Positions 2,740 through 32,226 of a DNA stretch of 64,000 bases are shown one piece after another. Numbering within the stretch: position 1 is the first letter of the stretch; every line of letters begins with the position of its first letter. Source of the DNA: Acidobacteriota bacterium. GTDB taxonomy: Bacteria; Acidobacteriota; UBA4820; DSQY01. The position numbers were made by a program, and so were the translations under genes. The DNA is taken from NCBI GenBank assembly GCA_049591295.1, contig JBAWEQ010000259.1, positions 25,812 to 89,811 on the forward strand, written 5' to 3'. The notes below the pieces were generated by a model that saw nothing but the letters and a program-made list of their open reading frames with translations, was not told where the DNA came from and ran no database searches.

Positions 2740-3158
2740 TGGCTCCGCTCGACACCCATCTTAGTGAAGATCTTCTCCACCTCCTCGAAGGGCAGGTAGC
2801 CCACGTGCCGTTCGAACTCTTTCCCGTCGGCAGTGAAAAAGATCTGCGTAGGGATCATCATGATCTTATACTCCCGGGCCGCCTCAGGCTTCTTGTCCAG
2901 GTCGATGAATTCGATGACCGCCTTGCCTTTGTAGCGGAGCTCGGCCTCCTGGAGAACCGCCACCATCTGCTTGCACGGGATGCACCACGTCTTGCCCAGA
3001 TCCACCATCCGGGGCAGGGCCCGGGGATCCGCCGGCCTCCCGGCGGCCGTCTTCTCCGGCGGAGGCGCCGCCTTCCCGCCCCGAACTCCAGCCATAACCC
3101 ACACCGACATCAGGATCAAAACCAGGAATACCGCACCCGCGACGACTCTCCTCATCAT
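2736..3158 (-). CDS. Membrane-anchored TlpA-like thioredoxin
   Basis: N-terminal TM anchor followed by a thioredoxin fold with a WCIPC active site. Its 4-nt overlap with ccdA indicates an operon. Confidence 0.7.
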   Translation of the reverse strand: MMRRVVAGAVFLVLILMSVWVMAGVRGGKAAPPPEKTAAGRPADPRALPRMVDLGKTWCIPCKQMVAVLQEAELRYKGKAVIEFIDLDKKPEAAREYKIMMIPTQIFFTADGKEFERHVGYLPFEEVEKIFTKMGVERSH

Positions 3159-5997: not shown

Positions 5998-6477
5998 CTA
6001 CAGGGGTATCACCAGGGCCACACGAACCGACTCGGTGCCGGGGTTGTGGCGGGCCACACCGCCGTTCGAGTAGTGGAAGACCCCAATCCCCAGCCGGTAC
6101 CCCCTGCCGAGATGATAGAACAGCTCCAGTCCCGACCGGAACTCCAGGTGGCTCCCCAGGTCGTAGTGGTGATCCGAATAGCGGCCGGGGCCGGAGGTCA
6201 GAGACGCGCTCCAGCGGTCTGAAAAAACGTACTGAAGGGTCAGATTGAGCCCCTCGTAATTCTCTAGAGAACTGACGTCCAGCACGCCACCGGCGCCCCA
6301 AGAGAGCTTCCCCCAGGAATGAAAGAGGTGGCGCAGTTCCAGAGACCCGTAAAGGTGCCGGTTCTGGTTCTGGACGTTGCCCACGGCGGGACCCACCAGC
6401 ACGAAGGTCTCTCCCGCCAAGGCCGGCCAGCCTACGATGAACAGCGCGGCCATGAGAAGCCTCTTCATCCTCAGCAT
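5998..6477 (-). CDS. PagL-like outer-membrane lipid A 3-O-deacylase
   Basis: Signal peptide, a small beta-barrel, and a C-terminal FHYSNGG motif containing the His-Ser catalytic pair of PagL. Confidence 0.55.
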   Translation of the reverse strand: MLRMKRLLMAALFIVGWPALAGETFVLVGPAVGNVQNQNRHLYGSLELRHLFHSWGKLSWGAGGVLDVSSLENYEGLNLTLQYVFSDRWSASLTSGPGRYSDHHYDLGSHLEFRSGLELFYHLGRGYRLGIGVFHYSNGGVARHNPGTESVRVALVIPL

Positions 6478-6535
6478 GATCAGCCTCCTTTCTATCCGGC
6501 GCTGCTTTTGGCAAAAAGGCTGGCCGGCTGATGCC

Positions 6536-7813
6536 TTAGGCGAGCCACCCCGCGGCGCCCAGAAGCGCCCCCGCGGCCAGGGGGAAGACGGGATGCACCT
6601 TGAACTTCAGGAGCAACAGGAGGGCCAGGGCCATGAGCGCCCAACCGGGCAGGCCGTGGAGGGCCGAAGGGCCGAGGAGCACGGCCGCACCCACGATGAG
6701 CCCGGCTACGGCGGGCGAGACCCCCGCGAGGAAGTCCTCGAAGCGCGCGTTGCCCTTGAAGCGCACGTATCCCAGCGTGAGCACCGTCATGAGGGCCATG
6801 GCGGGGGCGAAGAGGGCCAGGGTGGCCGCGAGCGCCCCGCTCACGCCGTGCAGATGGTAGCCGGCGAAGGTGGCGAGGACGGCGATCGGGCCGGGCGTGA
6901 GGTTGCTGATGGCTACGCCATCCAAAAATTCGCGGTTGTTGAGCCAGTGGAGCTGGGTCACGAGTTTCTGGTGGAGGATGGGTATGAGGACGAAGCCGCC
7001 CCCGAAGAAGACGAGGCCCACCTTGAGGAAGGTCCAGACCAGGGCCGCCAGGGACGTGCCAGCCGCGGCCTGTGACGCGCCTGGGACGGTGAAGGCCTGA
7101 ATAGGGAGGACGGGAGAGCGGGAGGGTAACTCCTGGGGCATTCCCGGCTCTCCTCCTCCCCTCTCTTCCTCCTTGTGAACAGATCCTCCGCCCGTGCCGC
7201 CCGCCTTCGGGGGGCTTCCGCCGCCCAGCCGCCGATTGCCCGTCAGAAGCCCCAACGCGCCAGCCGTGGCCAGCACGTAGACGGCGTTGACCTTGAGCAG
7301 CGAAAGGGCCAAGGCCAGGAGGGCCACCACCACGGCGGGCCAGCTTCGGAGGGCCTTCCGCCCCAGGGACCAGGCGGCGGCCACGATGAGGGCGATGACC
7401 ACCGGCCCCACACCCTGCACCGCAGCCTGGAGCGAAGGGATGCTGTGGTAGGCGAAGTAGAGCCAGGACAGGAGGATCACGAGAAGCACTGAAGGCACCA
7501 TGAAGGCGCCCGCGCACAGGAGCCCCCCCAACGGCCCGAAGAGCCTGCACCCCACGAAAAAGGCCGTGTTGACCGCGAAGGGGCCAAGGAGCTGGCTGAA
7601 GCCCACGCCGTGCAGGAACTCCTCCGCCGGGAGAAGCCGGCGCTTCAGGACCAGATCCCTCTCCATCAGCGCGATCACCGCCATCCCACCGCCGAAACCA
7701 ATGGCACCGATGATCAGGAAACGGAGCATCAGCGAAGGGAGGGAAGCGCTGGACGCCGCTTGATCGCCCTCGTTCCCTGTCGGAGATTCTGGCTCGGCCT
7801 TCATCCTGCGCAC
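6536..7813 (-). CDS. chrA: Chromate transporter ChrA (duplicated CHR domains)
   Basis: Two homologous halves, each with FGGG motifs (IGFGGGMAVIAL and LVFFGGGFVLIPIL). A 425-aa polytopic membrane protein. Confidence 0.8.
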   Translation of the reverse strand: MRRMKAEPESPTGNEGDQAASSASLPSLMLRFLIIGAIGFGGGMAVIALMERDLVLKRRLLPAEEFLHGVGFSQLLGPFAVNTAFFVGCRLFGPLGGLLCAGAFMVPSVLLVILLSWLYFAYHSIPSLQAAVQGVGPVVIALIVAAAWSLGRKALRSWPAVVVALLALALSLLKVNAVYVLATAGALGLLTGNRRLGGGSPPKAGGTGGGSVHKEEERGGGEPGMPQELPSRSPVLPIQAFTVPGASQAAAGTSLAALVWTFLKVGLVFFGGGFVLIPILHQKLVTQLHWLNNREFLDGVAISNLTPGPIAVLATFAGYHLHGVSGALAATLALFAPAMALMTVLTLGYVRFKGNARFEDFLAGVSPAVAGLIVGAAVLLGPSALHGLPGWALMALALLLLLKFKVHPVFPLAAGALLGAAGWLA

Positions 7814-25947: not shown

Positions 25948-27633
25948 TCAGGGCCTCGGTACGGCCTTGGCCATCCAACGCTTCACCGAGCGGTAGAGGC
26001 CGGGAGGGAAAGCCCCATTCATGAGCGGCGGCCAGCCTACCGCGCCGCCGGGCCCCATCACGACGGGCCCGCCCGCTTCGCCCAGCGGAAAGGGGGCGTA
26101 GATCAGATCCGCCGATCCCAAAGCGAACTCCGTGGTCATCAGGAGGCGCAGGACCATGGGGTTGAGCCGCACCTGCGCCTGGTTCGGCAGGAACTCCGCC
26201 AGCAGGCGAGGCGCCAGCGGAACCCAATCGGCGGGTTCGAGCGCCGGCGGAAGGACCCGGTCCGTCTTACCCAGCGCTATCTCCAGGACGAGCCGGGCCT
26301 CCTCCGCCTCCGCGGCCGGGGCGGCCAGGCCCGCAGCCGCCGAGAGCGACCAGCCGCCGTATCCCTGATACGCCAGCGTGTCGAAGGCGGGTACGCAGAA
26401 GGCGCCTGACAGGCCGGCAGGAGCCGCTCCCTCCCCGAGCACGGCATCCAGCAACTGGAAGGGCGTCGAGTACCGCTTGCCGTCCAGCGTGAAGGTGCCC
26501 TCGATCCGCCAGAAGGGGAGCCAGGCACGGCCCCCTTCGCCGGGCGCGTCGCCGAACCAGCCCTGTCCGACGGTGCGATAGGGAATCACCTGGAGCCCGC
26601 CGGGCGCCGCCCGCAGCATCCGCCCGCAGTTGCCGCATAGCTGATGCTCCGTACCTCCCTGCGGGCTTACGTCCCATCCGCACTCAGGGCAGCGGAAGGC
26701 CACCACGTGGATCGCGGGCGGCCGGACGTCATCGGGGCCCATCACCGGCCAGTCCTTCGCTGCAGCGCGCTCCACCTCCTCCGCTTTGGGGTAACCCGCC
26801 AGCGTGCGGAATTGACCGTCCAGGAGGAACCAGCCCAATCCCTCCGGCGTGCTCGCCTGCACGTAGTAGTAGGGCCGGTAGACCCACCATGCATGAGAAG
26901 CGAACACTTCGGAGTCAAAGAAGATGGGCGCAAGATCGGGTTCCAGGAGCCTGCCCTGCCGCAGCCAGCGTTTCGCGACGCGGCCGGGGTCCGCGTCGGC
27001 CGCCTGGGGCCGCATGAAGCGATGCTTCGCCAGGTCCTCGCCGGACAGGGGACGGAAGCGGAGGTGGGAGACCCACAGACCGGCATCCCTGAAATTCCAA
27101 TCGCTTCCGTAGGCGGGCAACAGATCATCGGCCACGTAAAAGAGGGATTGGAAGGCCTTCCGATCCGCCGGCGGCACGCGACCCAGAACGTGAAAGCCCA
27201 GGGACACCGACACCATGAGGTAGGGCGCGTAGATCCTGGTGTAGCCCCTGAGGGCGAACAGGCCCCGGCGCTTCGCCTTGATCTCGGCCAGGGCTGGAAG
27301 GTTTGCCTCCTGCATGTCCGTCAGGAGCGAGGGGGCATCGTTGCGCCGCGACTGTTGTTGGGCGATCCCAGCCAGGCGCGCCTGCTCCCGGACGGCGTCG
27401 TAGGTCTGGAGCACGTCGAGCAAGTCGTCCCGGGATCGGATGCGGTCCTCGGCCAGAAGGAAGCGCCTCTCTCCCTCCGGTTCCGGCCAGAGGAGGCGCG
27501 AGTCGCAGTAGGAGCAGACGTTCAGCCGCTGCAGAAGCCCCCAGCGGTTCTCTCCCCCGCAGTTGGGACAGGCCGCCCAGACCTCGTGATCGAGCGCCCC
27601 TGATCCCTCTCCCCGTCCCGCCTCCTCCGCCAT
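25948..27633 (-). CDS. Hypothetical protein with two zinc-ribbon modules (start at MAEEAGRG with a strong GGAGGGA RBS; ORF maximum extends to 27831)
   Basis: CPNCGG...CSYC near the N-terminus and CPECGW...CGNCG mid-protein. No recognisable catalytic motifs. Codon bias is consistent with a coding sequence. Confidence 0.5.
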   Translation of the reverse strand: MAEEAGRGEGSGALDHEVWAACPNCGGENRWGLLQRLNVCSYCDSRLLWPEPEGERRFLLAEDRIRSRDDLLDVLQTYDAVREQARLAGIAQQQSRRNDAPSLLTDMQEANLPALAEIKAKRRGLFALRGYTRIYAPYLMVSVSLGFHVLGRVPPADRKAFQSLFYVADDLLPAYGSDWNFRDAGLWVSHLRFRPLSGEDLAKHRFMRPQAADADPGRVAKRWLRQGRLLEPDLAPIFFDSEVFASHAWWVYRPYYYVQASTPEGLGWFLLDGQFRTLAGYPKAEEVERAAAKDWPVMGPDDVRPPAIHVVAFRCPECGWDVSPQGGTEHQLCGNCGRMLRAAPGGLQVIPYRTVGQGWFGDAPGEGGRAWLPFWRIEGTFTLDGKRYSTPFQLLDAVLGEGAAPAGLSGAFCVPAFDTLAYQGYGGWSLSAAAGLAAPAAEAEEARLVLEIALGKTDRVLPPALEPADWVPLAPRLLAEFLPNQAQVRLNPMVLRLLMTTEFALGSADLIYAPFPLGEAGGPVVMGPGGAVGWPPLMNGAFPPGLYRSVKRWMAKAVPRP

Positions 27634-28028
27634 GCTCCCTCCGCCGGATCCCATCGGGGTCCGGGCCTTGAGGTTAGCACAGTCGGTGTCATCAGCGATG
27701 GCCGCCGATCCTGCCGAGGGCCTCCTGGAAATGGGGAGAGCCCCTGTTCTCCACGTGGGTTCCGCCATCCAGGGCAGCCCTCCCTTCGTCCGTTCCGACC
27801 CATCCTCGATGGGTGTGCCGCTTCGGCACATCCGGGCCCCGATGCCCCGGCCGCTTTGGCACGGTTCATCCCTTCACATTTCACAATGAGCTGAAAAAAC
27901 GTCATTTCCCCTCCTCGGGGGAACTGGCATGCGTGATGCATTCAAGAAAACCTTCGGTGCCGAGGACAACGTCCCAGGCGCCGAGAGGTTCGGCCCCTCC
28001 GAACCCAATCCCTCCCTCCCCTTCCACA

Positions 28029-28050
28029 GGCCCGCCCGCAAGGGCGGGCC
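28029..28050 (+). other. GC-rich stem-loop GCCCGCCC-GCAA-GGGCGGGC (GNRA-like loop) within a long intergenic region
   Basis: 8-bp perfect stem with a GCAA tetraloop followed by CGCCCCATTTCT. No upstream gene on either strand for it to terminate. Confidence 0.35.
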
Positions 28051-28135
28051 GCCCCATTTCTAGGGGCGTGCCCCGTGCTTGAGGAAGAGACTCGGCCCCG
28101 CTTTCGATCACCAGCCGCGCGCTGGGCCCGTGCTA

Positions 28136-28335
28136 GTGCGCTGTCTCTAAAATGGGTTGACCATTGAAGCATGTGAGAGACAGCACACGGAGGGGTGCTG
28201 GGAGGAAGCCTCCCCGCTCCTTCGGGGTAACAGCCCCCGCGGGCGGACGCCCTAGGGGCGGAGCCCCTTGGGAAGTGTTGTGTCCCAGGAAAAAGCCATG
28301 GTAAACACAATCCAGGGACACAACACTAGCATGGA
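28136..28335 (+). ncRNA. Candidate structured RNA / 5' leader upstream of 28353 (series of stable hairpins, two mutually exclusive)
   Basis: Hairpin 28140-28184 (GCTGTCTCT...AGAGACAGC), GGGAGG-aagc-CCTCCC at 28198-28214 competing with CCCCG-ctcctt-CGGGG at 28212-28227, and a 15-bp stem GTGTTGTGTCCCAGG/CCAGGGACACAACAC at 28275-28326 ending 9 nt before the RBS. None of the ORFs in this region look like genes. Confidence 0.35.
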
Positions 28336-28352
28336 AGGCCGAGGAGCGAAGC

Positions 28353-28715
28353 ATGGATGATCTGCACGTGAGGGCCGTCACGGCCGATGAACAGGAACGG
28401 TTGGTCAGCTGCCTGCTCTGCGGAGAACTCTTCGAGGCCGGCTCCGAGGCCGCCGTGCTCTACGATGGCGATGAGCCGATGGGTGAACTCTGCCCCGCCT
28501 GCCTCCGGTCAGGCCCGAGAGAGGCGGCCCTGCGCGCACGCGAGTATGCCGCACAGCTCCACGCCATGGCCGAAGGCTACCTCGGATTGGCGGAGCAGGT
28601 GGAGTCTTTGGACGGATGGATGAACCGCCGTGGCGAAGCCCCTGGCCGGCTCTCGTCCGTTGAGACCGAGAAACATCCCCCTCCCAACGATCCCCGACGT
28701 TACAAACCGGTCTAG
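28353..28715 (+). CDS. Hypothetical small protein with CxxC...CxxC
   Basis: 120 aa, GAGGAG RBS, GC3-rich codons, and a zinc-ribbon-like CLLCGE...CPAC pattern. Confidence 0.4.
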   Translation: MDDLHVRAVTADEQERLVSCLLCGELFEAGSEAAVLYDGDEPMGELCPACLRSGPREAALRAREYAAQLHAMAEGYLGLAEQVESLDGWMNRRGEAPGRLSSVETEKHPPPNDPRRYKPV

Positions 28716-28782
28716 GAGGGCCTGGCCGGGTGACGGGTCCCTCTTCCTGGCCCCCTTCTCCCCGCCTTACTCCCCGCCACGT

Positions 28783-28876
28783 CTTGCGGCGGCTCCGCTA
28801 TCTCCCTCACCCCCCGCTGGCCACCTCCCGGCAGATCAGCTTCTGGTGCGCCGCCTCCAGCGGACACCCGCCGCCG
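28783..28876 (-). repeat. Direct repeat duplicating the 3' end of the radical SAM/SPASM gene (copy of 29020-29112)
   Basis: The minus strand encodes GGGCPLEAAHQKLICREVASGG-stop, versus CGGGCPLEAAHQKLYCREVASGG-stop at the genuine C-terminus. About 90% nt identity over ~90 nt, and the similarity continues into the 3' flank (GAGCCGCCGCA). Confidence 0.7.
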
Positions 28877-29042
28877 CGTCGCGCAAGCGCTCCCCAAGGA
28901 GGGCCTCGGCCGGCCCTCCTCGGCGCTCCCCCGGCCTTCGCCGGGCTCGCTGCTCCTCTCTGCTCTTGCGCGGGTTGCCCTCTGCGCGGGGGAACCTCTC
29001 CGTTCCCCCGCTCCCCCTCGCCCTGCGGCGGCTCCCTTCCCC

Positions 29043-30389
29043 TCACCCCCCGCTGGCCACTTCCCGGCAATAGAGCTTCTGATGGGCCGCCTCCAGCGGA
29101 CACCCGCCGCCGCAGAGGCTGAGGTGCTCACAGGCCTCGCACTCGGGCAGGGGCTTCTGGGGCTGACGGAGCTTGAGGCAGAGGGGGTGGTTCCAGATGG
29201 ACTCCCACGAATCGGTCAGAAGGTTGCCTACGCCTTCGTAATAGGATTGGCAGGGGATGACCGTTCCGTCCGGCTCCACCGCCATGCTCAGCCTCGCCGC
29301 CGTGCACTGCTTGACGCCGAGCGCCATCTCCACGGGGTTCAACTCGCAGTACCGCGTCGGGGTGTACCAGACGAAGCGGAGCCGCTTTTCGCGGGCCTGA
29401 CGGGCCAGCGTTTCCAGAACGGGTGCGACCTCCCGCGAGGTGAGGTCGATGCCCGAGCTCTTGCCCTTGCCCGAGTAGATCATCCCGTTGACGGCAAAGG
29501 TGCCGAGACCTTCGGCGGCCACCAGATCCACGAGGTTCTCGATGCCGGGCAGGTTGACCCGCGTGAGCGTGGTGTTGGTCAGGGTGAAGAGGCCCGAAGC
29601 CTTGGACTGGCGGAGCCCGGCCAGGGTCTCCTCGAAGGAGTCGGATCGGGTCAGGGCGTTGTGGAGGCTCGGATCGGCCGACTCCAGGGTGATCTGGACG
29701 TGATCCAGACCGGCCTCCCGAAGCGCCCCCGTGTAGGCGGCGTCCCGCAGGCGCCGCCCGTTGGTGTTGAGGCCCGTGACCAGCCCAAGCTCTCCGGCGT
29801 AGGCCACCAGCGCGGGCAGGTCGTCGCGGAGCGTGGGCTCGCCTCCCGTGAAGACCACGTGCGGTATGCCCGCCGACTCGCAGGCGTCCAGCACCCGCCT
29901 CCAACCAGCCGTGTCTAGCTCGGAGACCTGCCTGGATTCCTGGTTGTAGCAGTGGCTGCACCGGTTCTGGCAACGGTAGGTGAGGGCCAGGTCCATGCGC
30001 AGCGGGGCGCTCATGGCGGTTGAGAAGGGCTCGATGAGCTCGATCCCCAGGTCCGACAGGGGACAGACCTGGTCCGTGGCGGAGAGCCTACGCACCGCCT
30101 GGAGGATGCGCGAGAGGTCCGGTTCCAGCACCGCGCGCTTTACGCGATAGCGCCGGGCCATGAGATCCACCGTCTCGGCCTCGCTCAATCCGTCCACCAG
30201 GTGCTTCACCATCTCCGCCGCGGTGGGGTTCAGGTGGAGGATGCGGCTGGCGTCGAGGGTAAGGACTCCGGCTCCCGAGGGCTCGACCCGGAGGTGGATC
30301 CGGTGGGTGGTCCCCTCCACGATGAGGGTCCCCGGGTAGAGTCCCACCTTGACCCGCTCGGGTCTCCTGAAGAGGTCTCTCAGCCCCAT
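29043..30389 (-). CDS. Radical SAM/SPASM-domain peptide-modifying enzyme with N-terminal PqqD-like RRE domain
   Basis: CQNRCSHC (CxxxCxxC) radical SAM cluster motif. The N-terminal ~110 aa resemble a PqqD/RiPP-recognition element (LHLNPTAAEMVKHLVDG...). The C-terminal SPASM Cys array is CEACEHLSLCGGGCP. Confidence 0.8.
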   Translation of the reverse strand: MGLRDLFRRPERVKVGLYPGTLIVEGTTHRIHLRVEPSGAGVLTLDASRILHLNPTAAEMVKHLVDGLSEAETVDLMARRYRVKRAVLEPDLSRILQAVRRLSATDQVCPLSDLGIELIEPFSTAMSAPLRMDLALTYRCQNRCSHCYNQESRQVSELDTAGWRRVLDACESAGIPHVVFTGGEPTLRDDLPALVAYAGELGLVTGLNTNGRRLRDAAYTGALREAGLDHVQITLESADPSLHNALTRSDSFEETLAGLRQSKASGLFTLTNTTLTRVNLPGIENLVDLVAAEGLGTFAVNGMIYSGKGKSSGIDLTSREVAPVLETLARQAREKRLRFVWYTPTRYCELNPVEMALGVKQCTAARLSMAVEPDGTVIPCQSYYEGVGNLLTDSWESIWNHPLCLKLRQPQKPLPECEACEHLSLCGGGCPLEAAHQKLYCREVASGG

Positions 30390-30450
30390 GGCATCCTCCC
30401 TTTGCCCTCACTCCTGCGCACCAGGTCGAGCCTATTTCCCTTCGGGCCGT

Positions 30451-31989
30451 TCATCTTCCGCCTCCCGCGCAGGCGCAGGCGCAGCCAGCGCAAGCGCAAG
30501 CACAGGCGCAGCCTCCTCCCGAGGCGTGGCCCGAAGACTGCGGCACGGGATTCGTCTGCTGGGTGACCTTGGTGGCGAGGCCGGGGACGCTGTTCACCAG
30601 GTCGTGGGCGAACCCCTCCAGCCCCGTCACGACGGTGTTGGCCGCCGCCACGGGGCTCGGAGCGGGCACTCCTCCCCCCGCCGTTCCGGCCGTATGGCCG
30701 GTGTATAAGGGCACCCACCAGACGGGGAGCGGCATGGGGTTGTTCCCGAAACGCTGCGCGGCCTGCTGGCCGAACTCCTTGTCCAGGAGCATCCATTCGA
30801 AGGCCTGGGCGTAGTCCTGGCTCCCCACCTGCTCCCACGCCTTCCTCATGATCTCGCGGTAGTAGAGGACGCTCTTCTTCCGGCTGAAGCCCTTCATCTT
30901 CTCCTGGACCCGCTTGATGAGGTCCGTCAGGACCGCCACCGCCTCCTTCTCGCTGATTCGGCCGTCGTCCTGAACGGCCTTGGCGAAGGCCTGCTCGTAG
31001 TCCGCGGCCGGGGCCTCCCCCGGTACCAGCTCCAGCTTCAGCGGCGCTCGTCCCACCACCTTCAGGAGGTTCTTCCGTATCATGCCGAAGAGGAGGAGGG
31101 CCATCACCTTGTCCACGGGCTCCTCCATGAGGACGGCTACCTCGGGCACCGTCAGCCCCCTCCGCACCTCCACTCCCTCCATCCCGATGCTGGGCGGCAG
31201 GTATTTGAGGCGCCGACGCCGCGACTGGACGATCACCAGGATGAAGAGGCCGAAGAAACCAGCCATGAAGACGCAGGGCAAGGCACCGAGGATGAGCTGC
31301 CCCAGGGCTGCCGCCATCCTGGCGGCCGGCCCCGGCCCCTTCGGAACGGCAGCCAGCCGCTCCATGACCTTGGCCGGGAACGACGCCCCGAAGGTGACCT
31401 GGCGGGAGGGAGAGGCGTTCGGCATGTCCCACGTGTAGATGACCCGGCCTTGCTCCACCCGGGCCGAAGTGAAAGGCGTACCGTGGTAGCGGGGGTCGTC
31501 GGGCCCCACGCCCTCGGGGAAAACGAAGCTGCAGACCAGGAGAGTGGTCCCCGAGGTGTACTGGGAGCCGTACCAGGTGGGACTGAATTCCAGGCTGGCG
31601 TAGGAGGAGTCCTTGCTGTCGGGGAACACCCTGTTCCTGGCCACGGCCGAGAGGTGCAGCGTTCCCTCGGAGCCTGCGGGAATGGCCCTCTCGCCCAGAT
31701 GGACCTCCACCCCATACTGGAGGTAGGAAGAGGGCCGGATATCCGTCAGGGCCGCCCCATCCAGGTCGGCCTTCACCCCCTTCAGATCGTACTGGCCGTC
31801 GGGGAGGCCCACGTCGATGACGTCGATCGGCTGTCCCTGGTTCCGGAAGGTGATGGCGTACCGAATGGTGATGGAGGCGTCGCGATTCACCTCGACGACG
31901 CTGCGGTTCTGCGGTACCTCGAACCGGTAATCGGCCAGGACAGCGAGGCCCACCGCCAGGGCCACCAGGGCAACGAACAGTCTCTTCAT
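30451..31989 (-). CDS. DUF2207-like membrane protein with C-terminal (Cys-Ala)n tail (start at MKRLFVAL after a GGAGGGGG RBS; ORF maximum extends to 32028)
   Basis: Signal peptide, an extracytoplasmic N-domain (YRFEVPQNRSVVEVNRDASITIRYAITF), TM helices, a cytoplasmic domain, and the terminal GGGCACACACAGCACACAGGGR. Confidence 0.6.
   Translation of the reverse strand: MKRLFVALVALAVGLAVLADYRFEVPQNRSVVEVNRDASITIRYAITFRNQGQPIDVIDVGLPDGQYDLKGVKADLDGAALTDIRPSSYLQYGVEVHLGERAIPAGSEGTLHLSAVARNRVFPDSKDSSYASLEFSPTWYGSQYTSGTTLLVCSFVFPEGVGPDDPRYHGTPFTSARVEQGRVIYTWDMPNASPSRQVTFGASFPAKVMERLAAVPKGPGPAARMAAALGQLILGALPCVFMAGFFGLFILVIVQSRRRRLKYLPPSIGMEGVEVRRGLTVPEVAVLMEEPVDKVMALLLFGMIRKNLLKVVGRAPLKLELVPGEAPAADYEQAFAKAVQDDGRISEKEAVAVLTDLIKRVQEKMKGFSRKKSVLYYREIMRKAWEQVGSQDYAQAFEWMLLDKEFGQQAAQRFGNNPMPLPVWWVPLYTGHTAGTAGGGVPAPSPVAAANTVVTGLEGFAHDLVNSVPGLATKVTQQTNPVPQSSGHASGGGCACACACAGCACACAGGGR
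30456..30516. repeat. Simple sequence repeat (GCAGGC/GCAAGC hexamer units) encoding the Cys-Ala tail
   Basis: Minus-strand sequence tgc gcc tgt gct tgc gct tgc gct ggc tgc gcc tgc gcc tgc, imperfect 6-nt tandem units. Confidence 0.6.
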
Positions 31990-32226
31990 GACCTTTTCCC
32001 CCTCCGAAGCGGTCGGCCTTCGCCGCACCTTCCCGGTACCCTCAGCGGCGGGGCGCCGCTTTGCGAGTCATCCCCGTCGCTCTCCCTCCAAGAGAAGCCC
32101 TTCCGACGGGTCGCGGGTTCTATGTACTCCGCGCTACCGCCCATACTGCCCAACCGGCACCACCCGATCGCTCCGGGGACCGCCTTCGAGGAAACCCTCG
32201 AGATGGTGATGTCGGCTTCGCCGCGA

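Follow-up and report, generated by a model that had tools for sequence, protein, structure and literature searches.

The stretch of DNA analyzed here, called the window, comprises 64,000 nucleotides (nt) of an Acidobacteriota bacterium (contig JBAWEQ010000259.1) and carries on its minus strand a gene for a PqqD-radical SAM-SPASM maturase (rSAM gene), the 3′ end of which, reading ...CGGGCPLEAAHQKLYCREVASGG-TGA, occurs a second time downstream of the gene. Between the end of the gene (copy A) and its repetition (copy B) lie 20 nt of post-stop sequence and linker and an element of 145 nt, named S in the following. The coordinates of all parts are collected in Table 1, and the loci and contigs compared with the window are labeled L001-L097. 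Taken together, the comparisons make it probable that the second gene end is the footprint of S, a small, non-autonomous and structured insertion element, and not the remnant of a gene. The repeated gene end is, on this reading, whatever local sequence the element landed in.

The repeat itself was recovered by three methods. A gapped local alignment on the minus strand pairs 29113..29011 with 28877..28770, blastn reports 28770-28877 and 29011-29113 as one repeat with a period of 236 and 86.5% identity over 104 nt (E 9e-28), and an ungapped repeat finder matches 28767-28877 with 29003-29113 at a spacing of 236. In a blastn comparison of 28640-29200 with the 64-kb window, the gene-end repeat was the sole significant self-match. 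The repeat is thus present essentially where an earlier note on this DNA had placed it, and the description given there was accurate. Over the last 71 nt including the stop codon the two copies are 90.1% identical. Their translations, each followed by a stop, are GGGCPLEAAHQKLYCREVASGG for copy A and GGGCPLEAAHQKLICREVASGG for copy B, as the earlier note had read them. Four of the five changed codons are synonymous between copies A and B (GCC>GCG, CAT>CAC, CTC>CTG and GAA>GAG), the fifth, TAT>ATC, replacing Tyr by Ile; the seven mismatched sites read G, C, G, A, T, C and G in copy B and C, T, C, T, A, T and A in copy A. The frame of copy B is shifted relative to that of the gene (236 = 3 × 78 + 2), and a 98-aa open reading frame (ORF) across the spacer has no Pfam match.

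S is non-coding and measures 115-146 nt in its different copies. From the left end GGCGAGGGGG it runs through the hairpins H1 (GGGGGAAC/GTTCCCCC), H2, a variable H3, H4 (GAGGAGGGCC/GGCCCTCCTT) and H5 to the right end GCGCGAC. An alignment of 13 copies (MAFFT) revealed the common ends GGCGAGGGG... and ...GCGCGAC together with the common hairpins H1, H2, H4 and H5; in the middle hairpin H3 the sequence is free and the hairpin form constant. The spacer is kept between the window clade and the more distant locus L012, with compensatory changes in its hairpins. RNAalifold missed H3-H5 on this alignment because their lengths vary, and the helices were therefore supplied by hand. In register, 92.7% of the cells of these helices pair, as compared to 42-57% with slid partners; eight pairs are changed on both sides and the covariation score was matched by none of 500 shuffles. 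None of 200 shuffles folds as well as S (z −4.1). S is structured and conserved, and it belongs to a family instead of being a spacer peculiar to this locus. The idea of a functional 3′ RNA element, considered in the earlier note, is half right: a conserved and covarying structure does exist, but it is the G-rich spacer and not the repeated gene end.

Rfam 15, including its models for retron non-coding RNA (ncRNA), group II introns, ribozymes and small RNAs, yielded no relevant match for window positions 27500-30500 at E ≤ 1, nor for L090, L092 and L094 at E ≤ 5. S had 0 matches in IMG/VR viral contigs and none in phage records, and a literature search that included the literal S core string found nothing relevant. 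S is apparently an undescribed small element. One marginal plasmid match to the H4-H5 part of the S consensus was observed in an unannotated stretch of NZ_LR743510.1, a 2.8 Mb replicon of Methylobacterium bullatum (928325-928386, blastn 78% over 59 nt, E 8e-4), and may be due either to chance, the DNA being GC-rich, or to a distantly related S element from beyond the Acidobacteriota.

Loci with S were found by one exact-pattern scan, which used the two most conserved blocks of the element and led to nine JGI metagenome contigs, among which only L088 carries the rSAM gene. L087 and L089 were discarded, as they contain the H1 hairpin alone, inside coding sequence (18 bits). S lies behind tRNA-Gly(GCC) in L086 (tRNA 291-366, S 445-559) and in L093 (tRNA 3044-3119, S 2834-2963, minus strand), which are different organisms with the same site and the same T-arm-complementary linker. 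It is further found behind a tRNA-like 3′ end (L092), a gene for an FtsX permease (L090), a CCG/4Fe-4S gene (L085) and the terminator downstream of a xerC/D-like gene (L091), as well as behind the rSAM orthologs of L088, L094, L012, L096 and the window clade. At every locus S is in sense orientation to the upstream gene (at least six independent targets, two-sided p ~0.03).

Among the rSAM orthologs, the second gene-end copy is present in those with 96% protein identity (L001-L003/L005, L006), the 93% ortholog L004 contains a single copy followed by the same spacer, L088 and L094 contain two copies each and the 74% relative L012 contains three (2.3 units, period 224, 96% matches). Loci L007-L010, L013, L014, L095 and L097 do not contain S, and unrelated sequence follows the stop codon. 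In the rSAM protein tree the occupied loci fall into three sub-clades, each with empty-site sisters, and the element is missing from most orthologs, including closer relatives of L012; its distribution is patchy. In the comparison with orthologous loci proposed by the earlier note, some loci (L004 and the empty sites) have no second copy and others have one, which does not decide the matter. Covariance model R1 detected no further copy of S in 919 kb (the 64-kb window plus ~855 kb of related loci), and within the window none was found by blastn of 28640-29200 or by the H1 pattern with 2 mismatches. The neighbors of S are housekeeping genes. No reverse transcriptase (RT), integrase or transposase was found among the 20 window genes scanned, no RT domain occurs in the locus neighbors or in the Pfam annotation of the syntenic L001, and no integrase recurs beside S among the S loci. 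Since S is low-copy, has housekeeping neighbors and is accompanied by none of these enzymes among the 20 genes scanned, it looks non-autonomous.

Direct repeats of local sequence, 35 to ~117 nt long, enclose S in seven of ~9 independent loci, the seventh case being the rSAM arrays of the window clade and L012. The typical order is target copy 1, 0-45 nt of filler plus an inverted linker of 8-19 nt, S, 0-8 nt, target copy 2 and the original flank, so that the right end of S is within 0-8 nt of the second target copy and the filler is confined to the left side. Direct repeats of tRNA or gene 3′ ends thus flank the insert, as is typical of attachment (att) sites; no core sequence is shared across the target edges (rSAM GCGGCGGC..., tRNA-Gly GGTTCGAATCC..., FtsX GCCTCCATC... 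and others). In L094, L088 and L012 the distal copy carries a flank that differs from the flank of the proximal copy, and in L088 and L094 the distal copy and its flank are colinear with the S-less locus L009. Judged by this colinearity, the distal copy is the original one, its flank being ancestral in L094 and L088. The duplication in L094 breaks off in the loop of a terminator-like hairpin of the ancestral locus, and only the distal copy is followed by the rest of that hairpin.

Immediately to the left of S, 8-19 nt read as the reverse complement of the duplicated target at its left edge. For the window, linker GCCGCCGCAG and target edge CTGCGGCGGC gave a score of 10 against a null of 4.8 ± 1.1 (p = 0.0016), and the corresponding pairs are GGGATTCGAAACGCGACC and the tRNA T-arm GGTCGCGGGTTCGAATCCC in L086, GCGCGGCGC and GCGCCGCGC in L090, and ACCGACGC and GCGTCGGT in L092. 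Compared to random windows of the same contig, the complementarity reached p values of 0.0002-0.014 per target (Fisher 3.6e-10, five target classes), and in a cross-locus matrix own or same-target linkers scored 8-10 versus 4-6.5 for unrelated loci. These two nulls replaced a first inverted-repeat test that had used composition shuffles and a too narrow right-end pattern. When S was folded with 24 nt of flank, six of the seven contexts showed linker and target edge paired in a stem of 8-16 bp that closes the element; in the minimum free energy fold of the window, 14 flank-to-flank pairs arise as the linker anneals to the beginning of copy B. As the linker differs with each target, it must either have arisen from the target during insertion or have been selected to fit it. 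A 67-nt segment between copy 1 and S in L088 was also tried as a full inverted target copy (p ~0.025), an idea that was not relied on because the cleaner relative L094 shows a 21-nt linker. As a degenerate direct copy of the flank, the same segment was not significant (p 0.36 and 0.86).

The S copies interleave across targets on their tree. S of the window clade is 85-86% identical to S of L091 and 66-71% identical to the rSAM-linked S of L012, L088 and L094, and the closest relative of L012 S is the FtsX-associated S of L090 (80% identity). This interleaving implies that S has moved. The window itself consists of two tandem units, namely copy A, linker and S1 followed by copy B, linker and a decayed S2, after which the native convergent gene follows. 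The decayed S2 has kept a recognizable S start and 3′ arm of H4 (ccggccaggccctc), and this remnant abuts the stop codon of the convergent gene or takes it in. The number of gene-end copies is one in L004, two in the window, L001, L006, L088 and L094, and three in L012, and probably varies by unequal recombination. In L001, L006 and L012 copies A and B are identical within a locus, but the S copies differ by 4-7%, a sign of gene conversion or of unequal exchange in the recent past. In the window the gene-end copies are diverged, copy B being nearer to the L001/L006 alleles than copy A is, and the second S of L001 and L006 ends at other points than the second S of the window. The recombination scar that the earlier note offered as one option was therefore right in spirit, the copy being better described as a by-product of insertion with duplication and of subsequent unequal recombination, which left one, two or three copies in the relatives.

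In L012, three gene-end copies and two full S copies are located at 6283-6791. The third, distal copy has the last conserved Cys changed to Tyr and ends with ...ASGG-TAG, whereas the two proximal copies end with ...ASGS-TGA; the insertion thus altered the functional C-terminus of the gene.

The observations are best explained if the 3′ end of the rSAM gene received an insertion of S, whereby the target segment would have been duplicated and the gene kept intact, and if the array was later expanded, homogenized and eroded as its direct repeats underwent unequal crossing-over or gene conversion. How the primary insertion took place can only be proposed tentatively, and a copying of S into a staggered break, with a snap-back of the new end, has distinctly less than an even chance of being correct. 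In such a process two nicks 35 to ~117 nt apart, one in the 3′ end of the gene and the other near or after the terminator, would open the target. The nicked target strand would prime the copying of S, which would create the tight right junction, and the new 3′ end would snap back on the target edge and thereby generate the inverted linker and the closing stem. Imprecise rejoining would then leave the variable filler, and fill-in would produce the target duplication. The copied template could be RNA, with an RT acting in trans, or DNA. This route is favored because it accounts for the variable length of the duplication, the arbitrary right boundary, the tight right and untidy left junctions and the inverted copy of the target edge.

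Similar anatomies are known from other systems. Non-LTR (long terminal repeat) retrotransposons and short interspersed nuclear elements (SINEs), which use target-primed reverse transcription, share with S the small, structured and non-autonomous form and, in anatomy alone, variable duplications from staggered nicks, the tight 3′ junction, an untidy 5′ junction with filler and short inverted segments from template switching. They differ in that the duplications of S are much longer, that S has no poly-A or other 3′ tail and that no partner RT was identified. For elements of this kind, target-primed reverse transcription is not known from bacteria. Retron ncRNAs resemble S in their ~150 nt, their several hairpins and a closing stem of the a1/a2 kind formed by family-variable inverted repeats, but S has no adjacent RT gene and no Rfam match, its stem stems from the host target and the target is duplicated. 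MITEs (miniature inverted-repeat transposable elements) as well as repetitive extragenic palindromic (REP) sequences and bacterial interspersed mosaic elements (BIMEs) are likewise small, non-coding, hairpin-rich, intergenic and non-autonomous. In contrast to MITEs, S lacks conserved terminal inverted repeats: its ends GGCGAGGGG... and ...GCGCGAC do not form an inverted repeat, the one in the flanks changes from locus to locus, and the duplications span 35-117 nt instead of 2-10 bp. S further differs from all these elements by its low copy number (none elsewhere in 919 kb), its strict sense orientation and its association with 3′ ends. A high-copy REP or MITE was rejected, as blastn of the window, the H1 pattern and R1 over 919 kb gave no further copies.

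Several observations weigh against the insertion of a mobile S. The mobility of S is read from its distribution, and no mobilizing enzyme was identified. Only ~9 independent S loci are known, from a scan biased toward close variants, and the presence of S behind the rSAM gene in three sub-clades could also go back to one ancient insertion followed by repeated precise loss. The staggered break and the snap-back are deduced from anatomy. Loci L004, L093 and L085 have no second target copy (in L093 the second tRNA end was lost or never present), and the array of the window clade terminates in a decayed S where a target copy would be expected. Not every locus thus has the target-S-target form, and secondary deletions have to be assumed for L004, L093, L085 and the window clade. 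With respect to the linker, L090 shows no complementarity to the right flank of S, its signal being found only at the edge of copy 1, and the signal of L091 is partly due to a palindromic terminator. Finally, the wobble-pair counts of S (G:T versus A:C, 9 versus 7) single out neither an acting strand nor RNA.

An insertion of the integrase or Xer type is unlikely, yet it is the foremost alternative. Here, S and one target copy would have recombined, as a small circle or a folded single strand, within the homology of the target in a Campbell-like manner, with a recombinase of the host or of a helper as catalyst. In the same way, genomic islands bring along a substitute 3′ end of the tRNA or gene into which they integrate. 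The stem of linker and target edge would mimic a duplex target, much as the forked hairpin attP of the folded single strand does for XerCD in CTX-phi. Targets at tRNA and gene 3′ ends, direct repeats and tandem arrays are classic for integrative elements, proximal and distal copies in L012 and the window differ mostly at synonymous sites, as though one of them had come in as a foreign functional allele, the closing stem joins the linker to the target edge, and S of L091 is located just downstream of a xerC/D-like gene. Elements integrating at 3′ ends and their integrase-less derivatives (cis-mobilizable elements, CIMEs) also share with S the insertion into tRNA and protein gene 3′ ends, the replacement gene end, the direct repeats and the tandem accretion. 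Nevertheless, S is non-coding and only 115-146 nt long, at least five unrelated targets without a common core are joined to one and the same S, its repeats vary from 35 to 117 nt with arbitrary ends such as the hairpin loop in L094, an extra inverted copy of the target edge is present and no integrase recurs beside it. Each move would moreover require a new target copy and a new inverted linker beforehand. CTX-phi and other integrative mobile elements exploiting Xer (IMEXs) are similar with regard to the hairpin stem of two inverted target-like segments ~90-150 nt apart, the direct target-like repeat and the commonness of tandem arrays. CTX-phi is a 7-kb phage with one target site (dif) and a fixed attP. 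It differs from S, the stem sequence of which changes with each target and which shows no common dif-like core.

That S is a beneficial cis-acting RNA, i.e., a stabilizer in the 3′ untranslated region (UTR), a processing signal, a terminator or a 3′-derived small RNA that was spread by gene transfer and illegitimate recombination, with the duplications as incidental repair products, appears improbable as a full account. It would fit the constant sense orientation to the upstream gene, the structure conserved with covariation and the position of S exactly where 3′ UTR elements act. It leaves the systematic target duplication and the target-derived linker unexplained, the wobble pairs show no asymmetry toward RNA, and S decays fast in arrays, as seen for S2 of the window and the second copies in L001 and L006. 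A cis-acting function is compatible with S being a mobile element, and the two are not exclusive.

Still less probable, and in our view very unlikely, is a purely local tandem duplication, in which S would be a native 3′ UTR, the 236-nt unit would have been doubled by slippage or unequal crossing-over and nothing would be mobile. The window, L001, L006 and L012 do contain head-to-tail arrays with a period of 224-239, L004 has a single unit, and copy number differs among close relatives as expected from unequal recombination. The repeated unit, however, holds S, and S is missing from most orthologs and stands behind tRNAs and unrelated genes, where it is bracketed by their own local repeats. 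Additionally, S copies interleave across targets, and in L088 and L094 the ancestral flank directly follows the distal copy without a second S. Tandem duplication is accepted only as a secondary process that changes the copy number.

The remnant of a second, deleted SPASM maturase paralog, suggested in the earlier note, has very little left to recommend it. The frame of copy B is intact over 22 codons and the stop, and its differences from copy A are mostly synonymous, but such a bias is to be expected anyway because copy A is still under purifying selection. No ortholog locus contains a second maturase gene, and the copy starts at the identical nucleotide (GCGGCGGC...) in every lineage that has it. 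What precedes the copy is not decayed coding DNA but the conserved structured element S, which is also found beside tRNAs and unrelated genes, and tRNA and other genes are partially duplicated in the same way.

Two further explanations can practically be dismissed. A template and variable repeat pair of a diversity-generating retroelement (DGR) acting on the C-terminus of the gene would match the ~100-nt direct repeat including the gene 3′ end and the structured spacer, but was rejected because the seven mismatches contradict an adenine-specific template, the repeat takes in the stop codon and non-coding flank, tRNAs are targeted as well and no RT is found among the genes examined near the locus or in the syntenic L001. 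An assembly artefact, i.e., a mis-assembled or collapsed repeat, could be suspected as the sequences stem from metagenome-assembled genomes, but is excluded because the copies are 13.5% diverged and the same architecture recurs across independent assemblies of different species, projects and contig-naming styles (NCBI JAJYLT01, JBMFSH01, DYKJ01 and CAVYWK01, ENA k141 contigs and JGI contigs).

Table 1. Parts of the rSAM locus in the window and direct repeats bracketing S at the other loci.
Feature	Position	Strand	Length	Identity	Basis or remark
PqqD-radical SAM-SPASM maturase gene	29043..30389	minus	448 aa		ORF list; host and target gene; last 71 nt are copy A
Target copy 1 (copy A), functional gene 3′ end including TGA	29043..29113	minus			encodes GGGCPLEAAHQKLYCREVASGG*
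Post-stop filler	29033-29042	minus			sequence
Linker GCCGCCGCAG	29023-29032	minus	10 nt		reverse-complementary to CTGCGGCGGC at the left target edge
Element S, copy 1 (S1)	28878..29022	minus	145 nt		covariance model R1, 111 bits, E 2e-19
Target copy 2 (copy B), non-functional duplicate including TGA	28807..28877	minus		64/71 to copy A	
Second post-stop filler and second linker copy GCCGCCGCAA (28784-28793)	28784..28806	minus			alignment
Degenerate second S (S2), internally deleted	28716..28783	minus			global alignment to linker and S1; repeat family 28714-28730 versus 28897-28913
Convergent gene with two Cys-x2-Cys motifs	28353..28715	plus	120 aa		native flank, outside the element; distal boundary of the rearranged region
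L086 repeat			117 nt	94%	last 25 nt of tRNA-Gly and trailer
L094 repeat			93 nt	97.8%	
L088 repeat			71 nt	95.8%	
L090 repeat			41 nt	92.7%	
L091 repeat			35-38 nt	97-100%	
L092 repeat			at least 24 nt	100% over 24 nt	contig end within the repeat

The host gene is assigned as PqqD/radical SAM/SPASM maturase by PF04055 (86 bits), PF13186 (38 bits) and PF05402 (30.9 bits), with cut-offs of 29.5, 21.5 and 23.4, respectively. It remains below every NCBIfam equivalog cut-off (best PqqE, 120 bits versus a cut-off of 381), and an exact protein look-up with the window sequence returned no record. Of 8000 candidates scored, 7972 were homologs at E ≤ 1e-20, with representatives in Acidobacteriota, Chloroflexota, Planctomycetota and Bathyarchaeia, and on these sequence matches the protein appears to belong to a widespread unnamed maturase family. 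Directly upstream of the rSAM gene, a protein of ~520 aa is encoded (window 30451-32028, minus strand), which ends in the invariant C-terminal tail ...SGGGCACACACAGCACACAGGGR* in every ortholog examined (L001 6401-7939, L004 4412-5956, L095-L097 and L088; also L007, L008, L010 and L012-L014) and has no Pfam or NCBIfam match. This protein is a likely substrate of the maturase, and the substrate would then be a large protein with a Cys-Ala repeat C-terminus and not a small peptide.

On the other side, the rSAM genes of L010 and L011 are directly followed downstream by homologs of the convergent 120-aa gene (tblastn, 43-44% identity, E ~1e-25), which is missing from L001, L006 and L004. Since it is a conserved neighbor of the rSAM gene in L010 and L011, the ~715 nt missing from these three loci represent deleted native flank and the window does not contain an extra insertion at this point. 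A conserved GC-rich hairpin, ggggcggcccgcccttgcgggcgggcc, follows an A-run at 28011-28062 of the window, ~9835-9870 of L001, 7504-7555 of L004 and ~6670-6700 of L006; read on the opposite strand it is a terminator-like hairpin followed by T's, and in all four window-clade loci it marks the point where colinearity resumes. Upstream of the 120-aa gene, the window also contains near-perfect inverted repeats at 28136-28188 (19 nt, 84% complementarity) and 28274-28327 (17 nt, 94%), which are probably a structure unrelated to S. A weak R1 match at 28186-28291 (plus strand, 21 bits, E 0.12) overlaps with them and, as native intergenic DNA, was excluded from the S count.

For the locus in the window, these results mean that a lost second maturase is no longer needed to explain the repeated gene end. 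In the conservative classification S is a non-autonomous insertion element with target duplication, although the chance that it stands for a new class is substantial. More specifically, S might be the non-coding half of an unrecognized class of prokaryotic mobile elements that is mobilized in trans by an RT, an HUH nuclease or a recombinase, rewrites a guide-like linker to pair with every new target edge, duplicates 35-117 nt of the 3′ end of the host gene and spares the gene, a proposal which we consider speculative and rather doubtful. If S is the mobile element that it seems to be, it would represent a new route by which small DNA moves in bacteria, landing within a few dozen bases of the end of tRNA and protein genes, with the long duplication rebuilding the gene end and the target-derived stem closing the structure of the element. 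It would also account for orphan gene tails and partial tRNA fragments that are annotated as pseudogenes or paralog remnants. The covariance model of S provides a handle for genome searches for the missing enzyme, and such an element might hint at a programmable, self-retargeting and gene-sparing insertion chemistry.

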